From a virus (lineage: Duplodnaviria > Heunggongvirae > Uroviricota > Caudoviricetes), in the IMG/VR virus record IMGVR_UViG_2627853795_000005, positions 1-32,635 of that record: a stretch of 32,635 nucleotides of DNA. One strand, written 5' to 3'. Positions 3,533-9,510 of this stretch are shown one piece after another (position 1 is the first letter of the stretch; each line of letters opens with the position of its first letter). Below the pieces are notes generated by a model. That model saw nothing but the letters and a program-made list of their open reading frames with translations. It was not told where the DNA came from and did no database searches. A program made the position numbers and the translations under genes.

Positions 3533-3774
3533 CCATTCTGGACTATATCGCCGCCAATCCGGGTTGTAGCGGTGGAGAAATCGCCGCCGCGCTGAATACC
3601 CCAACCACAGCCATTAATGCGGAGTTACGCCGACTCTGGCGCAGCGGTTCAGTCATAAGAAAAGAGCGCAAAACAGGCGGTCGCTTTTCTTACCAGATAA
3701 ACCCGATGCCGTTCGGGTGCGGCAATCCACTTACCAACATGTTAAACCAGCTACTGAAGGAAGTCAGAGCATGA
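3529..3774 (+). CDS. Small putative winged-helix DNA-binding protein
   Basis: 81-aa ORF; pattern GEIAAALNTPTTAINAELRRLWRSGSV looks like a helix-turn-helix; translationally coupled on both sides. Confidence 0.55.
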   Translation: MTILDYIAANPGCSGGEIAAALNTPTTAINAELRRLWRSGSVIRKERKTGGRFSYQINPMPFGCGNPLTNMLNQLLKEVRA

Positions 3775-3893
3775 GCACCATCAACCATCAGGAACTACGT
3801 GAACTGGCGACTGCCGTGCAAAGAATGTCTACCCAAAAATCACTGCCATTCCGTGTGAGCCCTGTCCGGCAGGTACAGGAGTCACACGGATGA
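3771..3893 (+). CDS. Possible 40-aa micro-protein
   Basis: My own translation: MSTINHQELRELATAVQRMSTQKSLPFRVSPVRQVQESHG; ATGA-coupled at both ends; its 3' end is a duplicate of the 3' end of ORF 3329..3532. Confidence 0.4.
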   Translation: MSTINHQELRELATAVQRMSTQKSLPFRVSPVRQVQESHG

Positions 3894-4090
3894 ACAGAAG
3901 GAGAATTACACGCAGACATCGCCGCACACGCCTGAGCTCCCCGCCAACACTAAAGAAACTCATTCAAAGCGAGATCGGTGATTTCTTCGCTGGATTTGGA
4001 TCACCAGGCGAACCAGAAACACCAGAAGCGATGCAGCGCGAACTCACGATGCGCATCGACAACGTTTTCGATTTTTTCCTTAACCAGTAA
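3890..4090 (+). CDS. Hypothetical basic small protein
   Basis: 66-aa ORF, Arg-rich N-terminus; start coupled to the upstream stop. Confidence 0.5.
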   Translation: MNRRRITRRHRRTRLSSPPTLKKLIQSEIGDFFAGFGSPGEPETPEAMQRELTMRIDNVFDFFLNQ

Positions 4091-4104
4091 GGGAGTAAAT
4101 CACA

Positions 4105-4656
4105 ATGAAACTCAAACCAATGGGTACGCCTGGTGTGGCTCCGGCACATGTAAAGCCATGGACACAGCAGGAGGATGAACTTTTAGCCACGTTATACCAC
4201 TCCCACACAGCGCCGGAGCTGACAAAGCACTTTCAGAGAACCGAGTCAGCAATACGAAGCCGCATCCGTCTTTTGCTCTCTCAGGGGGTTATTCACGCCA
4301 AACAAACTCCACTGAGTACAAAAGAACTCAGCATGCTCATCAGGAATCGCCACACAAAAACCATCCGGGAACTCGCGAATGAGCTGGGGCGCTCGCCATC
4401 CACGGTAGAACTGAACCTGAGAAAAAGAGGGTATCGGTTCAGGAAATACGGGGAACTCCACCACAGAACCAGATACAGCGATCACCTGGTGGAGCTGGTA
4501 ACTGAACTGCGTGATGAGAAGGGGATGACATTCAGCGAAATCAGGAAGCACATCCGGGACACGACCGGGATATCCCTTAAAAGATGGGTCCCCGCCAGGC
4601 TTTACGCACGATATACCGCCGCTGATACCGTGCTTTGCGAACTACTACCGGACTGA
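4105..4656 (+). CDS. Hypothetical protein, possibly a tandem helix-turn-helix DNA-binding protein
   Basis: 183-aa ORF with AAGGGAG RBS; two segments (PWTQQEDELLATLY...AIRSRIRLL and TKELSMLIRNRHTKTIRELANELGRSPSTVELNLRKRGY) look like HTH/Myb-like repeats. Confidence 0.6.
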   Translation: MKLKPMGTPGVAPAHVKPWTQQEDELLATLYHSHTAPELTKHFQRTESAIRSRIRLLLSQGVIHAKQTPLSTKELSMLIRNRHTKTIRELANELGRSPSTVELNLRKRGYRFRKYGELHHRTRYSDHLVELVTELRDEKGMTFSEIRKHIRDTTGISLKRWVPARLYARYTAADTVLCELLPD

Positions 4657-4976
4657 GTAACCACTATGTACACACAAAAAAACCGCTTGCCATGCCGCAA
4701 TCAGTCAGGTTACATTTTCGCTGCACCTCATAAAACGGGTGCCGGGTTTCGCAGCCTGCTGACAACCAAAGCGCACAACCGCGCCAGCGGTTTTTTTGTG
4801 CGTACTGTATTGCCACGTTTTTTTCGCGTCAGAATTATGGCGGGGCGTACGGGGCCGACTTCGGTCGGGCCGGGTTCTTTGGTTGCCGGTACTGCGAACC
4901 CCGTACGTCTCGCCACCCACAGTTTCGCAGCTCTGGATGGTGAGTTTTCAAAACTTACAACCAAAGAGGCCACACC

Positions 4977-5207
4977 ATGGCAAACCGCAAACAGCACCGC
5001 GCTATCGCGGAGCGTCGTCACATCCAGACTGAAATCAACCGCAGACTTTCCCGCGCATTCCGCGTCGCTAAAATCATGCACATCAATATGCTGCATGAGC
5101 GTAGCTGCGAACTTTCAAACCTCTACTCATCCGCTGTTTTCAGTTATCTGGCGGATGATCTGCGCGAGCTTCAGCAGCTCATCCAGCAGCAAAACAAACT
5201 CCATTAA
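4977..5207 (+). CDS. Hypothetical small protein
   Basis: 76-aa ORF with AGAGG RBS 9 nt upstream; sits directly after a highly structured non-coding stretch. Confidence 0.45.
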   Translation: MANRKQHRAIAERRHIQTEINRRLSRAFRVAKIMHINMLHERSCELSNLYSSAVFSYLADDLRELQQLIQQQNKLH

Positions 5208-5279
5208 TTCCTGTTCCGGGCCTTTCCTGCACCTTGCGGCGGGAGGCCTTCGCACATCTGTAACAAGAGGATTGCCGCA

Positions 5280-5645
5280 ATGATTCTCGCCAACGACTTT
5301 CTTGAATACCTGCTCAACACAGAGCGTGATCTTGCCGTTCGCGTGCGTGAACGTTATGACATGTACCTGAAATCCCTGCCTGTACCGCAGCTCGCTGACG
5401 GAAAGATTGTTATTGATGGTCGCTACATGATTGACAGCCACGAGGGAAATTACAGGCTTTACCGCATTGAAGGTGGCACTCCGTCCGTTATTGGCATTTA
5501 CCAGCGCCCATCCTCTGCAATCGTCGATGTGATTGCCGACAGCATCCGCATCACACATCGCTATGCCGACACAGAAGACACCGTGCTGGAAATTCAGCGG
5601 CTGGCTGCCGTTTGCCGTGACACCCTGAACGGTATGACGCAGTAA
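5280..5645 (+). CDS. Hypothetical protein just upstream of the replication gene
   Basis: 121-aa ORF with AGAGGA RBS; 6-bp gap to A. Confidence 0.6.
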   Translation: MILANDFLEYLLNTERDLAVRVRERYDMYLKSLPVPQLADGKIVIDGRYMIDSHEGNYRLYRIEGGTPSVIGIYQRPSSAIVDVIADSIRITHRYADTEDTVLEIQRLAAVCRDTLNGMTQ

Positions 5646-5651
5646 ATCAGT

Positions 5652-8474
5652 ATGACGACAGAGTACATCAGGGACTGGCAACAACCGCGCCACGCAGTGG
5701 GGCGTGAAGGAACGGGGATCCCCGCACCTGAATCCGCGCTTTCCTCCTGGCTGGATGCCTACCAAGCAGAGAACGAGCGCCGACAGGAAAAGGCTGATGC
5801 GGCGTTCTCTGCCACGCCACTGGGCAACCTGATTAATAAAAGCCTGGACGCACAGGAAAAACAGGACAAAACCATCACGCTGGCAGGAGACGCCAGAAGA
5901 CAGGCACGCGGCACGGTGGATGAAGCCATGGCCTCGCTGCGCCTGCTGCCGTCCTATCTGCGCGATCCGCTTATTCGCCACCTCTCCTTCCTGCGCAAAA
6001 AACAGGAAGTCGATCGCCGGAAAGGCAAAAAGAGCTGGCAGGCGGAACGCTATGCACGCGGAACCCTGCGCAAAATATTCGAACGTCTGGATCGCACTGA
6101 CGGACACTGGCTGACACCGGGTTATCGCTCCCTTGCCGGACGCGAACGCCTGGACGATTTGCTTTACCTGCCGCAGCTCAACAAACACCAGATACAGACG
6201 CTGGCCACCATGACGGCGGCGATGTTCAGCAGCACCTTCGAAAAACTCTGCGATGGCTTTGGTGCGACTGATGGCGAGCTGACCATGGATGTAACGCTGA
6301 AGGCGTATCAGATGCTGGCCCGCATGGCGTTACACCTGCACGCCATGCCTCCGCATTATGACGCACTGACAACAGACAAAGACCGGAGGAACGAACCAGA
6401 CACGGAGCTGCTGCCGGGCGCAATCCTTCGCCTGACCTGTGCGGAATGGTGGAAACGCAAACTGTGGCTGTTACGTTGCGAGTGGAGAGAAGAACAACTC
6501 CGCGCCGCCTGTCTGGTTTCCAGAAAAACATCGCCCTATCTGAGCCAGGATGCGTTAAGCGAGTTTCGCGCACAGCGCGAGAAAACACGCGATTTCCTGA
6601 AAAGTTTCATGCTGGAAAACGAAGACGGGTTCACGATTGATCTTGAGACAGTGTATTACGCGGGAGTAAGTAACCCGGTTCACCGTAAGGCAGAAATGAT
6701 GGCCACCATGAAGGGGCTGGAACTTCTGGCCGAAGCCCGTGGCGACAGAGCGGTGTTTCTGACTGTCACCTGCCCGTCAAAATACCACGCAACAACGGAG
6801 AACGGTCATCCGAATCCCAAATGGAACGGGGCCACTATGCGCGACTCCAGCGATTACCTGGTTAACTCGTTTTTTGCGGCGGTCCGCAAGAAACTGAACC
6901 GCGACGGCCTGCGCTGGTATGGCATCCGCACGGTGGAGCCTCACCATGACGGCACCGTGCACTGGCATATGATGGTCTTTGCTCATCCGGAAGAAATCGA
7001 CACCATTGTGTCCCACACCCGCGATATTGCCATTCAGGAAGATCGTCACGAGCTGGGTGATGATATTACCCCACGCTTTAAGGCAGAGTACGTCGACGGC
7101 TCAAAAGGCACACCGACCAGCTACATCGCCACCTACATCGGGAAAAACCTGGACAGCCGTGCCGTGGATGGCATCGACCCGAAAACGGGCAAGCCACGCG
7201 TTGACCACGAAACAGGTAAATCAATGGCCGAGAGCGTGGAGCGTGCCATCGGCTGGGCGCGCCTTCACCGGGTCCGCCAGTTCCAGTTCTTTGGCATCCC
7301 CTCCCGTCAGGTGTGGCGTGAACTCCGCCGCCTTGCCAGCCAGATGGCACGCAACCCGGAAGGCCCGCAACGGCTGAAGGATGACGCAATGGATGCGGTA
7401 CTCGCTGCCGCTGATGCCGGATGTTTTGCCACCTACATTGAAAAACAGGGGGGCGTACTTGTTCCGCGCAAGGACTACCTGATTCGCACAGCCTACGACC
7501 TCGCAGATGAGCTGAACGATTACGGCGAGCAGAGTGTACAGATTTACGGGATCTGGTCGCCGCTCATTGGGGAGTCTTCCCGCGTATGCACGCATCCGGA
7601 TAACTGGAAGCTGGTAAGACGCAAACCGGAAGCGGAAGACAGCGCCCGCGAAAATGGTTTTGACCTTCAGGGCGGCCCTGCCGCCCCTTGGACTCGTGGC
7701 AATAACTGTCCCCGTGTACAGGAAACAGGCAACAACGGGACAGAACAGCCGGAAGAACGGCCAGCACCGTGGCCGCAGCTTCCTGACGGCGTTGAAGTAA
7801 ATGAATGGATGCGCTCACTGAAACGGCACGAACGCCGGGCGCTGATGCGTTCGCTTCGTGACAAACAGGCAAAAAACAGCAGCGATGAAATGCAGAACTG
7901 GACACAGAGCCGCAAACAGCAGCGGCCTTTGCCTGATAACCACGAGTTACTCGCTAAAGAATGGCGGGAGTCTGCTGAATCTCTCGGCCTGCATATCGGT
8001 GAACAACAGATGCAGCACCTGTTACGGGGCGGCAGTCTGTACGTTGACGGCAGCATCATTGCACCGCAGGGATTTGAAATTGTACGCAAACCGGATACCC
8101 GCCCGGACAGCCGAATCACGCAGCTCTGGCAGCGTCTGAGCCGTAATCATGGCGTAAGCAGCACGGAGATCCGCCATAACCCGGTCGCCAGCTATCTGGC
8201 ACAGCTGGGGGCATCAGACCCTGAAGCCGCCGCACGCCTGGCATCCACACTTCAGCAGGACCAGAACACCATGAAAACACCCGTTACCGTGCTTTCTGAC
8301 ATGCTGCGCGCCATCCGCGACGCAGAGCACGCACAGAGAATCAGTGAAACCACTGAACGCGCCAGCCGCAAAGCAGACCTGCTGCGGGGTGGCCTGACCA
8401 GTGGAAACAAAAAACAGACAGAAACGGGACTCACGAATCCCGTAAATGAGCAAAAAACGCGCAGCGATATATGA
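5652..8474 (+). CDS. A: Replication initiation endonuclease gpA (HUH rolling-circle initiator), with a long C-terminal extension
   Basis: 940-aa ORF; metal-binding motif HWHMMVFAH and paired catalytic tyrosines in YIATYIGK (Y-x3-Y), as in the P2 gpA family; synteny. Longer than my recollection of P2 gpA. Confidence 0.9.
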   Translation: MTTEYIRDWQQPRHAVGREGTGIPAPESALSSWLDAYQAENERRQEKADAAFSATPLGNLINKSLDAQEKQDKTITLAGDARRQARGTVDEAMASLRLLPSYLRDPLIRHLSFLRKKQEVDRRKGKKSWQAERYARGTLRKIFERLDRTDGHWLTPGYRSLAGRERLDDLLYLPQLNKHQIQTLATMTAAMFSSTFEKLCDGFGATDGELTMDVTLKAYQMLARMALHLHAMPPHYDALTTDKDRRNEPDTELLPGAILRLTCAEWWKRKLWLLRCEWREEQLRAACLVSRKTSPYLSQDALSEFRAQREKTRDFLKSFMLENEDGFTIDLETVYYAGVSNPVHRKAEMMATMKGLELLAEARGDRAVFLTVTCPSKYHATTENGHPNPKWNGATMRDSSDYLVNSFFAAVRKKLNRDGLRWYGIRTVEPHHDGTVHWHMMVFAHPEEIDTIVSHTRDIAIQEDRHELGDDITPRFKAEYVDGSKGTPTSYIATYIGKNLDSRAVDGIDPKTGKPRVDHETGKSMAESVERAIGWARLHRVRQFQFFGIPSRQVWRELRRLASQMARNPEGPQRLKDDAMDAVLAAADAGCFATYIEKQGGVLVPRKDYLIRTAYDLADELNDYGEQSVQIYGIWSPLIGESSRVCTHPDNWKLVRRKPEAEDSARENGFDLQGGPAAPWTRGNNCPRVQETGNNGTEQPEERPAPWPQLPDGVEVNEWMRSLKRHERRALMRSLRDKQAKNSSDEMQNWTQSRKQQRPLPDNHELLAKEWRESAESLGLHIGEQQMQHLLRGGSLYVDGSIIAPQGFEIVRKPDTRPDSRITQLWQRLSRNHGVSSTEIRHNPVASYLAQLGASDPEAAARLASTLQQDQNTMKTPVTVLSDMLRAIRDAEHAQRISETTERASRKADLLRGGLTSGNKKQTETGLTNPVNEQKTRSDI

Positions 8475-8522
8475 AGCGCGCACAAAACAGGCAAAAACGG
8501 GATTTCAGAATCCCGTAAACGA
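8411..8522. repeat. Two about 39-bp direct repeats (period 73 bp), each with a 6-bp-stem hairpin (acggga / tcccgt), spanning the A stop and the parM upstream region
   Basis: Read directly: 8411..8449 aaaacagacagaaacgggactcacgaatcccgtaaatga and 8484..8522 aaaacaggcaaaaacgggatttcagaatcccgtaaacga. Confidence 0.7.
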
Positions 8523-8550
8523 TTAATTAATCAACATAAGGAAAACCGAC

Positions 8551-9510
8551 ATGAAAATTTACATCGACGACGGCTCCACCAACATCAAGCTGGCATGGAC
8601 TGAGAACGGCGAACGCCGCAACGCCATCAGCCCGAACAGCTTCAAGTCGGAATGGTCTGCGCCGTTCGGTGGCTCGCAGCCTGCTAACTACATGCTTGAT
8701 GGCGTGCGCTATGGTTTTGATCCGGTCAGCGATCGCTTTGTCCAGACGACCGACACGCAATACCAGTACAGCGATGTGAATGTCATTGCCATTCATCACG
8801 CGCTGGTCAAATCAGACATCACGCCACAGGAAGTGGATGTGGTTGTTACCCTGCCACTGAGCGAATATTTCGACACAAACGCACAGCCGGACATGGCCAA
8901 CATCAACCGCAAAAAAGCGAACGTCATGCGCCCGGTGGAGTACCAGAACGGCGAAGCATTCACTATCCGTAACGTACGGGTTATGCCTGAATCCATTCCG
9001 GCTGGCTTTAAAGCACTGGCTGACATGAGTCCGTTTGAATCCCTGCTGATTGTGGATTTGGGCGGAACCACGCTGGATGTGGCAAAGGTTCAGGGGCAAC
9101 TGGCAGGTATCAGCCAGGTGTTTTGCGATCCACACGTAGGCGTTTCTCTTATGGCCGATGCCGTACTGTCGGTGATGGCCACTAACGGTATGCGCACCAG
9201 TCACCACATCGCCAATACCATTATCGAACATCGCCATAATGAAGCCTGGCTGCGCCAGCACATCCACAATGACGCGCATTACGCCAGCCTGATGGCGGTT
9301 ATTCGTGAAAAGGAAGAAACACTGAAACAACGCGTGATCCGCGCGCTGGCGGTTTTTTCGGGTTACGGGCGGGTGATGGTTGTCGGTGGCGGGGCGGAGA
9401 TTGTGGCACCCGCTATCCGCGAAGCCTGCGGAGTTAATGCGACTTTCATCGCGGACGGGGTGCCACAGTTTGCTCTGGTTAATGGGCTGTACGCAATGGA
9501 CAAGGAGTAA
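8551..9510 (+). CDS. parM: ParM/StbA-like actin-type segregation ATPase
   Basis: N-terminal IDDGSTNIKL motif, ISPNSF, QYSDVNV..HHAL, MPESIPAG, DLGGTTLD, GGGAE and LVNG blocks co-linear with recalled plasmid R1 ParM; AAGGAAAA RBS. Confidence 0.8.
   Translation: MKIYIDDGSTNIKLAWTENGERRNAISPNSFKSEWSAPFGGSQPANYMLDGVRYGFDPVSDRFVQTTDTQYQYSDVNVIAIHHALVKSDITPQEVDVVVTLPLSEYFDTNAQPDMANINRKKANVMRPVEYQNGEAFTIRNVRVMPESIPAGFKALADMSPFESLLIVDLGGTTLDVAKVQGQLAGISQVFCDPHVGVSLMADAVLSVMATNGMRTSHHIANTIIEHRHNEAWLRQHIHNDAHYASLMAVIREKEETLKQRVIRALAVFSGYGRVMVVGGGAEIVAPAIREACGVNATFIADGVPQFALVNGLYAMDKE

Follow-up and report, generated by a model that had tools for sequence, protein, structure and literature searches.

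The 320-bp stretch at positions 4657-4976 is very probably a C4/CI-type antisense-RNA immunity cassette that forms part of the early operon in a prophage of P88-like type (P2 family). The window, by which we mean the whole 32,635-nucleotide stretch of DNA that was analysed, is a P88-like prophage of E. coli (P2 family; genus Xuanwuvirus), and phage P88 and the window share 96.5% identity across 81% of the first 25 kb. The window codes for an integrase, a P2-type C repressor and Cox pair, early genes and a 183-aa helix-turn-helix protein ahead of the cassette, which is followed by a 76-aa ORF, a 121-aa ORF, the gene A replication nickase (940 aa) and ParM. The assignment is directly supported by the family membership and structures of both RNAs in the stretch, by the three-way complementarity and covariation of their recognition sites, by the overlap of one of these sites with a ribosome-binding site, and by the homology of the downstream gene product to P4 epsilon. 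The features are collected in Table 1.

Table 1 Features of the cassette and of the genes around it (positions in the window)
Feature	Position	Strand	Details or basis
205-codon through-frame, candidate counterpart of the P4 eta frame	4666-5283	+	Pfam PF10554 Phage_ASH
Long-range inverted repeat, upstream arm (partner 4783-4805)	4668-4690	+	23 nt, 91% complementary, 92 nt apart
Sigma-70-type promoter candidate for the IsrK-like RNA	4687-4716	+	TTGCCA, 18 nt, TACATT; consensus scan
IsrK-like (P4 seqA-like) leader or small RNA	4723-4797	+	Rfam RF01394
IsrK-like hairpin 1	4723-4742	+	
IsrK-like hairpin 2	4743-4758	+	presents site a1 (TTCGCAG, 4748-4754)
IsrK-like single-stranded linker		+	holds site b1 (CAACCAAAG, 4763-4771)
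IsrK intrinsic terminator	4777-4792, then T7	+	6-bp stem; terminator scan
C4-type (P4 CI-type) antisense RNA	4833-4920	+	Rfam RF01695
C4 closing stem	4838-4854 with 4899-4915	+	17 bp; inverted-repeat search
C4 UUCG hairpin	4855-4868	+	5 bp, CCGAC-UUCG-GUCGG
C4 second hairpin	4869-4890	+	12-nt loop carries b' (CTTTGGTTG, 4877-4885)
C4 3' junction	4891-4898	+	carries a' (CTGCGAA, 4892-4898)
Target site a2	4924-4930	+	TTCGCAG, same as a1, complementary to a'; 4 nt past C4 3' end
Target site b2	4958-4967	+	CAACCAAAGA, complementary to b' over 10 nt; 38 nt past C4
76-aa gene, P4 epsilon ('derepression protein') family	4977-5207	+	predicted C4 target, presumed anti-repressor
Genes likely coupled to the cassette: 121-aa gene; gene A homologue	5280-5645; 5652-8474	+	phrog_3237; Pfam Phage_GPA, 435.7 bits

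First, the kind of element is already known, and both of its RNAs belong to curated families. When the whole window was searched with Rfam, the isrK family (RF01394) was matched with 65.9 bits (gathering score 50, E = 3.6e-12) and the C4 antisense RNA family (RF01695) with 87.1 bits over its full length, 1-87 (gathering score 45, E = 4e-16), and our own C4 model found exactly one C4 copy in the window. The first-pass annotation had called the region a candidate small structured RNA or regulatory element, which the two matches above the gathering scores bear out, and the covariance-model search that it had proposed thus gave a positive answer for both RNAs. As judged from the sequence, the layout is that of an IsrK-type RNA, with a promoter-like site, two 5' hairpins and a Rho-independent terminator, and C4 starts 36 nt downstream. 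The promoter and the terminator of the IsrK-like RNA are consensus matches only. The candidate promoter ends 6 nt before the start of the isrK model match, and among 45 distinct P88-like sequences 4 of its 30 positions vary, in 1-8 sequences each and all in the spacer between the hexamers. A short stem followed by T7 had already been noted at about 4776..4795, and the terminator scan recovered it. A second promoter, for C4 (4810-4838), was considered and set aside as weak because 16 of 46 sequences show changes in its -35 hexamer. Using our own model R2, the IsrK-like RNA was found in 46 of the 46 loci searched. The c4-a1b1 motif (RF03163) scored 19.6 bits against a cutoff of 46.7, which P4 itself, at 44.1, does not reach; the a1 and b1 sites are present nonetheless.

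The C4-like RNA alone has a minimum free energy of -49.7 kcal/mol (z = -3.9), and its fold is the family structure. Its closing stem is 88% complementary, with 17 of 17 standard pairs when G-U is counted, in keeping with the earlier description of a GC-rich UUCG hairpin enclosed by a longer stem. That hairpin had been given as 8 bp long; the hairpin itself stands, but it has 5 bp, the outer GGG belonging to the long stem and the GCC starting the next helix. In alignments fitted to the models, a procedure that favours pairing, 675 of 675 cells of the C4 helices were paired across relatives and 13 of 27 pairs showed double changes, which 0 of 500 shuffles matched, and only 33-46% of the cells were paired when the partners were slid. 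For helix 1 of the IsrK-like RNA, aligned in the same way, double changes were seen in 5 of 7 pairs, and 90% of cells paired as against 28-43% with partners slid.

Second, the repeats of the stretch are arranged as recognition sites. GTTTCGCAGC occurs at 4746-4755 and 4922-4931, and the members of a second pair, CTGACAACCAAAG (4759-4771) and CTTACAACCAAAG (4954-4966), are identical at 12 of 13 positions. Both had been listed before as 10-mers present twice, and this holds, the second being a 13-nt repeat with one mismatch. A third, inverted copy of each repeat, absent from that list, lies in C4 (CTTTGGTTG and CTGCGAA). At k = 7 there are 6 k-mers with two direct copies and one inverted copy, and at k = 8 there are 3; 0 of 1000 dinucleotide shuffles reached either count, and the repeat/stem pattern exceeds chance. 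Because these inverted copies are situated where C4 is unpaired, the direct repeats are taken as sites a1/b1 in the IsrK-like RNA and a2/b2 downstream. In the window, a1 and a2 are the same and are the reverse complement of a', the same relation holds between b1, b2 and b', and the inverted repeat formed by b2 with b' (I4) is 100% complementary over 10 nt. In addition, b2 overlaps the Shine-Dalgarno sequence AAGAGG (4964-4969), 7 nt before the ATG at 4977, an overlap that had gone unremarked in the first-pass annotation.

These sites change in concert between relatives. In a plain MAFFT alignment, from which all loop-target covariation was read, the variation among 45 distinct P88-like sequences was concentrated at the six a/b sites with mirror-image base counts, and 16 specificity types were distinguished. 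For example, positions 4750 and 4926 both have C32/G10/T4, and position 4896 has G32/C10/A4. The core sites are fully matched (a1 = a2 = reverse complement of a'; b1 = b2 = reverse complement of b') in 12 of the 16 types, while the flanking 1-2 bases differ, and in the remaining 4 types one b copy is off by one or two bases. A comparison of relatives for compensatory changes had also been proposed for this region, and its outcome is strongly positive for the C4 and IsrK helices and the loop-target sites alike, because the three site copies change together and the C4 helix cells stay paired in spite of the double changes in 13 of 27 pairs. Thirteen specificity types were counted in P4-like satellites and 5 in lambdoid phages, and divergent Salmonella and E. 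coli loci add further types. The offsets are the same in the P88-like, P4-like and lambdoid loci, with a2 at +3 to +8 and b2 at +34 to +41 after C4. The predicted loop-target duplex energy was on average -22.9 kcal/mol for cognate pairs versus -10.2 kcal/mol for non-cognate pairs, and 19 of 1056 non-cognate pairs came within 3 kcal/mol of the cognate value. Cross-silencing of satellites was also considered and was rejected, as on all sampled P4-type targets every P88-type C4 stayed more than 3 kcal/mol short of its cognate energy. In the few same-genome cassette pairs available (n = 4), specificity differs in 3 and is identical in 1.

In the P4-like locus L118, the C4 loop and b sites are poorly matched, with a cognate energy of -13.5 kcal/mol versus about -23 kcal/mol for the others, and this cassette may be decayed. 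In the E. coli prophage L175, the whole cassette (isrK, C4 and epsilon-like gene) occurs twice in tandem at 3747-5050, and the two copies differ in a/b specificity (TTTCCAC / CAAACGAAG and TTCGCAG / CTAGCAAAG).

Third, the gene that follows b2 is related to P4 epsilon. The 76-aa protein is 29% identical to P4 epsilon over 66 aa (BLASTP, E = 1e-8), and its match to Pfam PF25738 'Derepression' is marginal, at 29.5 bits against a cutoff of 27, where P4 epsilon gives 170 bits. Homologues are named 'derepression protein' in GenBank/RefSeq, and the protein is presumed to be an anti-repressor. In every relative examined, the epsilon-like gene lies directly 5' of GPA or with one small ORF between. Neither the 76-aa nor the 121-aa gene had a match in NCBIfam, and the same was true of the 205-aa through-frame described below. 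A GC-rich 14-bp hairpin without a U-run lies between the epsilon-like and 121-aa genes (5218-5249), and it was rejected as a significant element, being no more stable than shuffles (z = -0.5).

Several observations concern the surroundings of the cassette. Between P88 and the window, the C repressors (109 aa in the window, 1057-1386) are 40% identical and the epsilon-like proteins 89% identical; if the small protein is an anti-repressor, it would thus have no one-to-one match to the repressor type. The gene 5' of the cassette (window 4105-4656) varies among close relatives, coding for the 183-aa helix-turn-helix protein here and for an SPFH-domain protein in P88, and the homology of the relatives starts at 4666-4673, a boundary that resembles a junction left by cargo insertion or recombination. 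A ParM/StbA-type actin-like partition gene (8551-9510; Pfam StbA_N, 269.8 bits) follows gene A in this integrated P2-like prophage, a hint that the phage may pass through a plasmid-like stage or segregate its replicating genomes. LexA control was rejected: the sole CTGT-N8-ACAG match in the window is at 7706, within gene A, and none lies near the cassette. In loci L173 and L174, the cassette and the epsilon-like gene share one element with a GPA gene of reduced length (640 aa) and with genes for a lambdoid Q antiterminator and DUF968, which suggests a P2/lambdoid hybrid.

For the way in which the cassette may work, we rely on analogy with P1, P4 and Gifsy-1 with regard to the transcripts, RNase P processing, the translational block and the anti-repressor activity. 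The promoter at 4687-4716 would be active in the lysogen and would drive an IsrK/seqA-like RNA of about 75 nt with a1 and b1, and most transcripts would end at the IsrK intrinsic terminator. Read-through transcripts would carry the C4-like RNA, presumably excised by RNase P as in P1 and P4, and its loop b' and junction a' would pair with b2 and a2 just downstream. Such pairing at b2 and the Shine-Dalgarno would block translation of the 76-aa epsilon-family gene, the presumed anti-repressor, and the block would probably be polar on the 121-aa gene and gene A. The short IsrK-like RNA, with its identical sites, could compete for C4 and relieve the block, as in Gifsy-1. Since the a/b recognition sequences differ between close phages, we propose that specificity is particular to each phage (heteroimmunity). 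When the read-through RNA is folded in silico without processing, a'/b' are taken up in cis by a1/b1 and the ribosome-binding site stays accessible, and repression would therefore need processed C4 in trans. As for precedents, C4 pairs around the ribosome-binding site and blocks anti-repressor synthesis, which is the basis of P1/P7 heteroimmunity (PMC12197685), and C4 is an RNase P substrate (PMC11143913). In Gifsy-1, IsrK binds Hfq and trans-activates downstream translation, and when supplied in trans it raises translation of a downstream anti-repressor fusion 139-fold (PMC4825925). IsrK and the C4-like STnc1160 are highly expressed in lysogens, in which the lytic genes are silent (bioRxiv 10.1101/787010).

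Satellite P4 has the same order of parts as the window (seqA, CI RNA, seqC and epsilon), then a replication gene, and Rfam calls its seqA 'isrK' (60.8 bits) and its CI RNA 'C4' (74.9 bits). The P4 CI RNA pairs with seqA and seqC. As in the window, a2 and b2 of P4 (seqC) lie at +5 and +36 after the RNA, b2 overlaps a Shine-Dalgarno (AGGAGG in P4), a PF10554 ORF runs over the RNA and an epsilon-family gene lies downstream. The promoter geometry is also alike, with TTGCCT, 18 nt and TATAGT in P4 and then 6 nt to the isrK/seqA match; we take this promoter upstream of seqA to be PLE. The two elements differ in that b2 covers the ribosome-binding site of the epsilon-like gene in the window, whereas in P4 it covers that of a 65-codon ORF, kil, which runs into epsilon. 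The isrK-to-C4 spacer is 36 nt in the window versus 99 nt in P4, the replication gene codes for a P2-type A nickase in the window and for the alpha primase in P4, and the window is a complete P2-family phage whereas P4 is a satellite. In addition, the through-frame and the epsilon-like gene of the window are read in different frames, whereas eta and kil of P4 are nested in one frame. The 121-aa gene was considered as a homologue of P4 orf151 or orf106 and rejected, as it has no similarity to either.

The immI region of P1/P7 (c4, a1/b1, a2/b2, icd, ant) also has a processed antisense RNA with two elements that match upstream and downstream sites, and by its published description it is like the window in layout, in that the downstream site covers the ribosome-binding site, with an anti-repressor under control and heteroimmunity (PMC12197685). 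The Rfam family RF01695 is named after P1/P7 c4; however, Icd/Ant are unrelated to the downstream protein of the window. In Gifsy-1 of Salmonella (IsrK, STnc1160 'orf45', AnrP), IsrK ends at an intrinsic terminator, an anti-repressor lies downstream, and the read-through mRNA is translationally silent until short IsrK acts in trans (PMC4825925). Unlike the window, Gifsy-1 is a lambdoid prophage with an AnrP-type anti-repressor and a published model centred on a small ORF, and no Q-type antiterminator output is evident in the window. Both isrK and C4 are present in lambdoid Stx, mEp460 and ST64B phages at about 70% nucleotide identity to the stretch, one GenBank record annotates both RNAs, and the a' sequence of lambdoid ASU11 is the same as that of the window. 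These phages differ from the window in their downstream anti-repressor and are without the long-range inverted repeat. Earlier work has equated IsrK with seqA and C4 with CI RNA and has pointed out comparable systems in P1, P7 and N15 as well as in lambdoid prophages (PMC3632133; PMC4825925), and IsrK-C4 was recognised earlier as the P4 immunity system (PMC3632133).

The comparison bears on what C4 pairing would do. The position of b2 on the Shine-Dalgarno is the P1-type arrangement and speaks for a block of translation, whereas P4 immunity works via termination (PMC4825925), and it is quite possible, if short of probable, that in the same cassette C4 pairing mainly leads to premature (Rho-dependent) termination as in P4, with replication, through the 121-aa gene and gene A, as the controlled process and the anti-repressor secondary. 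The constant position of the cassette directly 5' of the GPA replication gene, the synteny with P4 seqA-CI-seqC-epsilon-...-alpha and the short gaps or overlaps between the downstream genes would fit such an output, which is not mutually exclusive with a translational block. Details of termination in P4 immunity are said to be given by Forti (1999) and Briani (2000).

A further layer may be added to the antisense cassette by the through-frame. On transcripts from the upstream early promoter, this frame might be translated, and the ribosomes (possibly together with the helix 4668-4690/4783-4805) might suppress the IsrK terminator and C4 and be handed over to the 121-aa gene and gene A at the ATGA, lytic expression then being insensitive to immunity, like P4 eta. 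We hold this to be conceivable rather than likely, and we only tentatively predict that the frame acts as a translational bridge from the upstream genes to gene A. The frame begins 9 nt past the stop of the upstream 183-aa gene and in the same reading frame. Its start codon is 5' of the isrK-type start site, which argues for the added layer. It then runs through the promoter, the two RNA genes, a2/b2 and the entire epsilon-like gene (offset 2), and its end shares an ATGA with the beginning of the 121-aa gene. Its score against PF10554 Phage_ASH is 30.3 bits (cutoff 26), and the old 'cI' ORF of P4 over the CI RNA, which we take to be part of eta, scores 59.7 bits. The first-pass annotation had seen no credible ORF and no ribosome-binding site here: an obvious Shine-Dalgarno is indeed missing before ATG 4666, which counts against translation, but the frame passes PF10554 and is open in most relatives, namely in 51 of 55 distinct P88-like sequences (the other four have stops in the frame, again a point against), in 66 of the 71 P4-like sequences that are distinct, in four of the five lambdoid loci and also in divergent loci. 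ATGA overlaps are found at both frame ends in the divergent Salmonella locus L171 and at the 3' end in L173. Synonymous recoding of the epsilon-like gene left the through-frame open in just 6-17% of trials in each of four lineages, which are related, so that the probabilities do not multiply. Forti et al. (1999) reportedly showed that translation of P4 eta is confined to transcripts that start at the upstream promoter, and that these are thereby insensitive to immunity.

The helix in question joins the upstream arm to a partner that comprises the IsrK terminator's 3' half with its T-run and extends 8 nt beyond. RNA 4660-4806 is predicted to fold into this long-range helix (-57.7 kcal/mol, z = -5.1) with loss of the terminator hairpin. 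P88 and three divergent loci (L171, L173 and L176) have the repeat with the same 92-nt spacing, and it is absent from the P4 and lambdoid copies. The arm at 4668-4690, a candidate antiterminator arm, lies 5' of the point where the isrK-type transcript begins and is therefore present on read-in transcripts only. Its covariation is weak, with 4 pairs that have one double change each, a result reached by 7 of 500 shuffles, and its conservation could be due to the overlap with the A-tract and the -35 hexamer.

In RefSeq, 4666-4926 is annotated as a pseudogene under the name 'ash family protein', and together with the PF10554 match this could mean that the stretch is a mere protein-coding gene or pseudogene with no RNA function. 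We consider this highly improbable, as the variable positions covary as base pairs and loop-target complements and not as codons, both RNA models are far above threshold, and the homologous P4 element acts as an RNA (PMC3632133, PMC4825925). The RefSeq name and PF10554 denote the frame over the isrK and C4 genes (window 4666-4926; 8168-8584 in the P4 locus L084) and not P4 epsilon, which matches PF25738 only. In a survey of P4-like satellites, PF10554 was taken as the epsilon marker (PMC8628076); as PF10554 is the frame over the RNAs, that survey probably scored the RNA locus beside epsilon. Finally, the direct repeats adjoin replication genes, and the replication element that had been offered as an alternative in the first-pass annotation, be it an origin, iterons or an A-protein binding array, finds no support and is extremely improbable, as there are just two copies of each repeat, each has exactly one inverted copy in the C4 loops, the three copies covary as RNA-RNA target sites and not as iterons, and the P2 origin is annotated inside gene A.

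The antisense-RNA cassette is widespread. In IMG/VR, the stretch was present upstream of the close homologues of the 76-aa protein in all 80 loci, with isrK and exactly one C4 in each at fixed distances, and in 6 of 6 more distant loci (epsilon-like proteins 57-77% identical) isrK and C4 lie at the same distances from the ATG and have their own matched sites. The 320 bp are present at an identity of at least 80% in 1283 of 5426 complete E. coli genomes. As RefSeq labels the stretch a pseudogene instead of two regulatory RNAs, its correct annotation affects many genomes. In the early regions of P2 and 186, to which the search of these phages was confined, model R1 found no C4 at E <= 1, and the presence of the cassette throughout the P2 family was rejected on this ground. 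P2 and 186 are the models of the family, and P88-like phages may thus control the anti-repressor and replication differently, in an RNA-gated manner.

In conclusion, our literature searches found no paper describing the cassette in P88-like or P2-like phages. Compared with the searched literature, its occurrence in a P2-family lineage 5' of gene A, an epsilon homologue as the direct target and the breadth of types are new. The cassette, being homologous to the one in satellite P4, is relevant to the evolution of helpers and satellites. The three-way covariation offers unusually clean natural data on specificity in RNA-RNA recognition, with 16 P88-like and 13 P4-like types that are mostly orthogonal. 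We also put forward a wider proposal, which we regard as rather unlikely in its entirety. It holds that a common P2-family (helper-type) lineage carries, before its own replication gene, an immunity-plus-derepression cassette otherwise known from the parasite P4, that the epsilon-like protein is a self- or competitor-directed anti-repressor of P2-type C repressors, and that the conserved, overprinted through-frame (possibly with the read-in antiterminator helix) is a bridge making lytic transcripts blind to immunity. If this is true, these P2-family phages would have an RNA-gated, SOS-independent route to induction, and the pattern of immunity among them would be determined by interchangeable RNA 'barcodes', of which there would be dozens.
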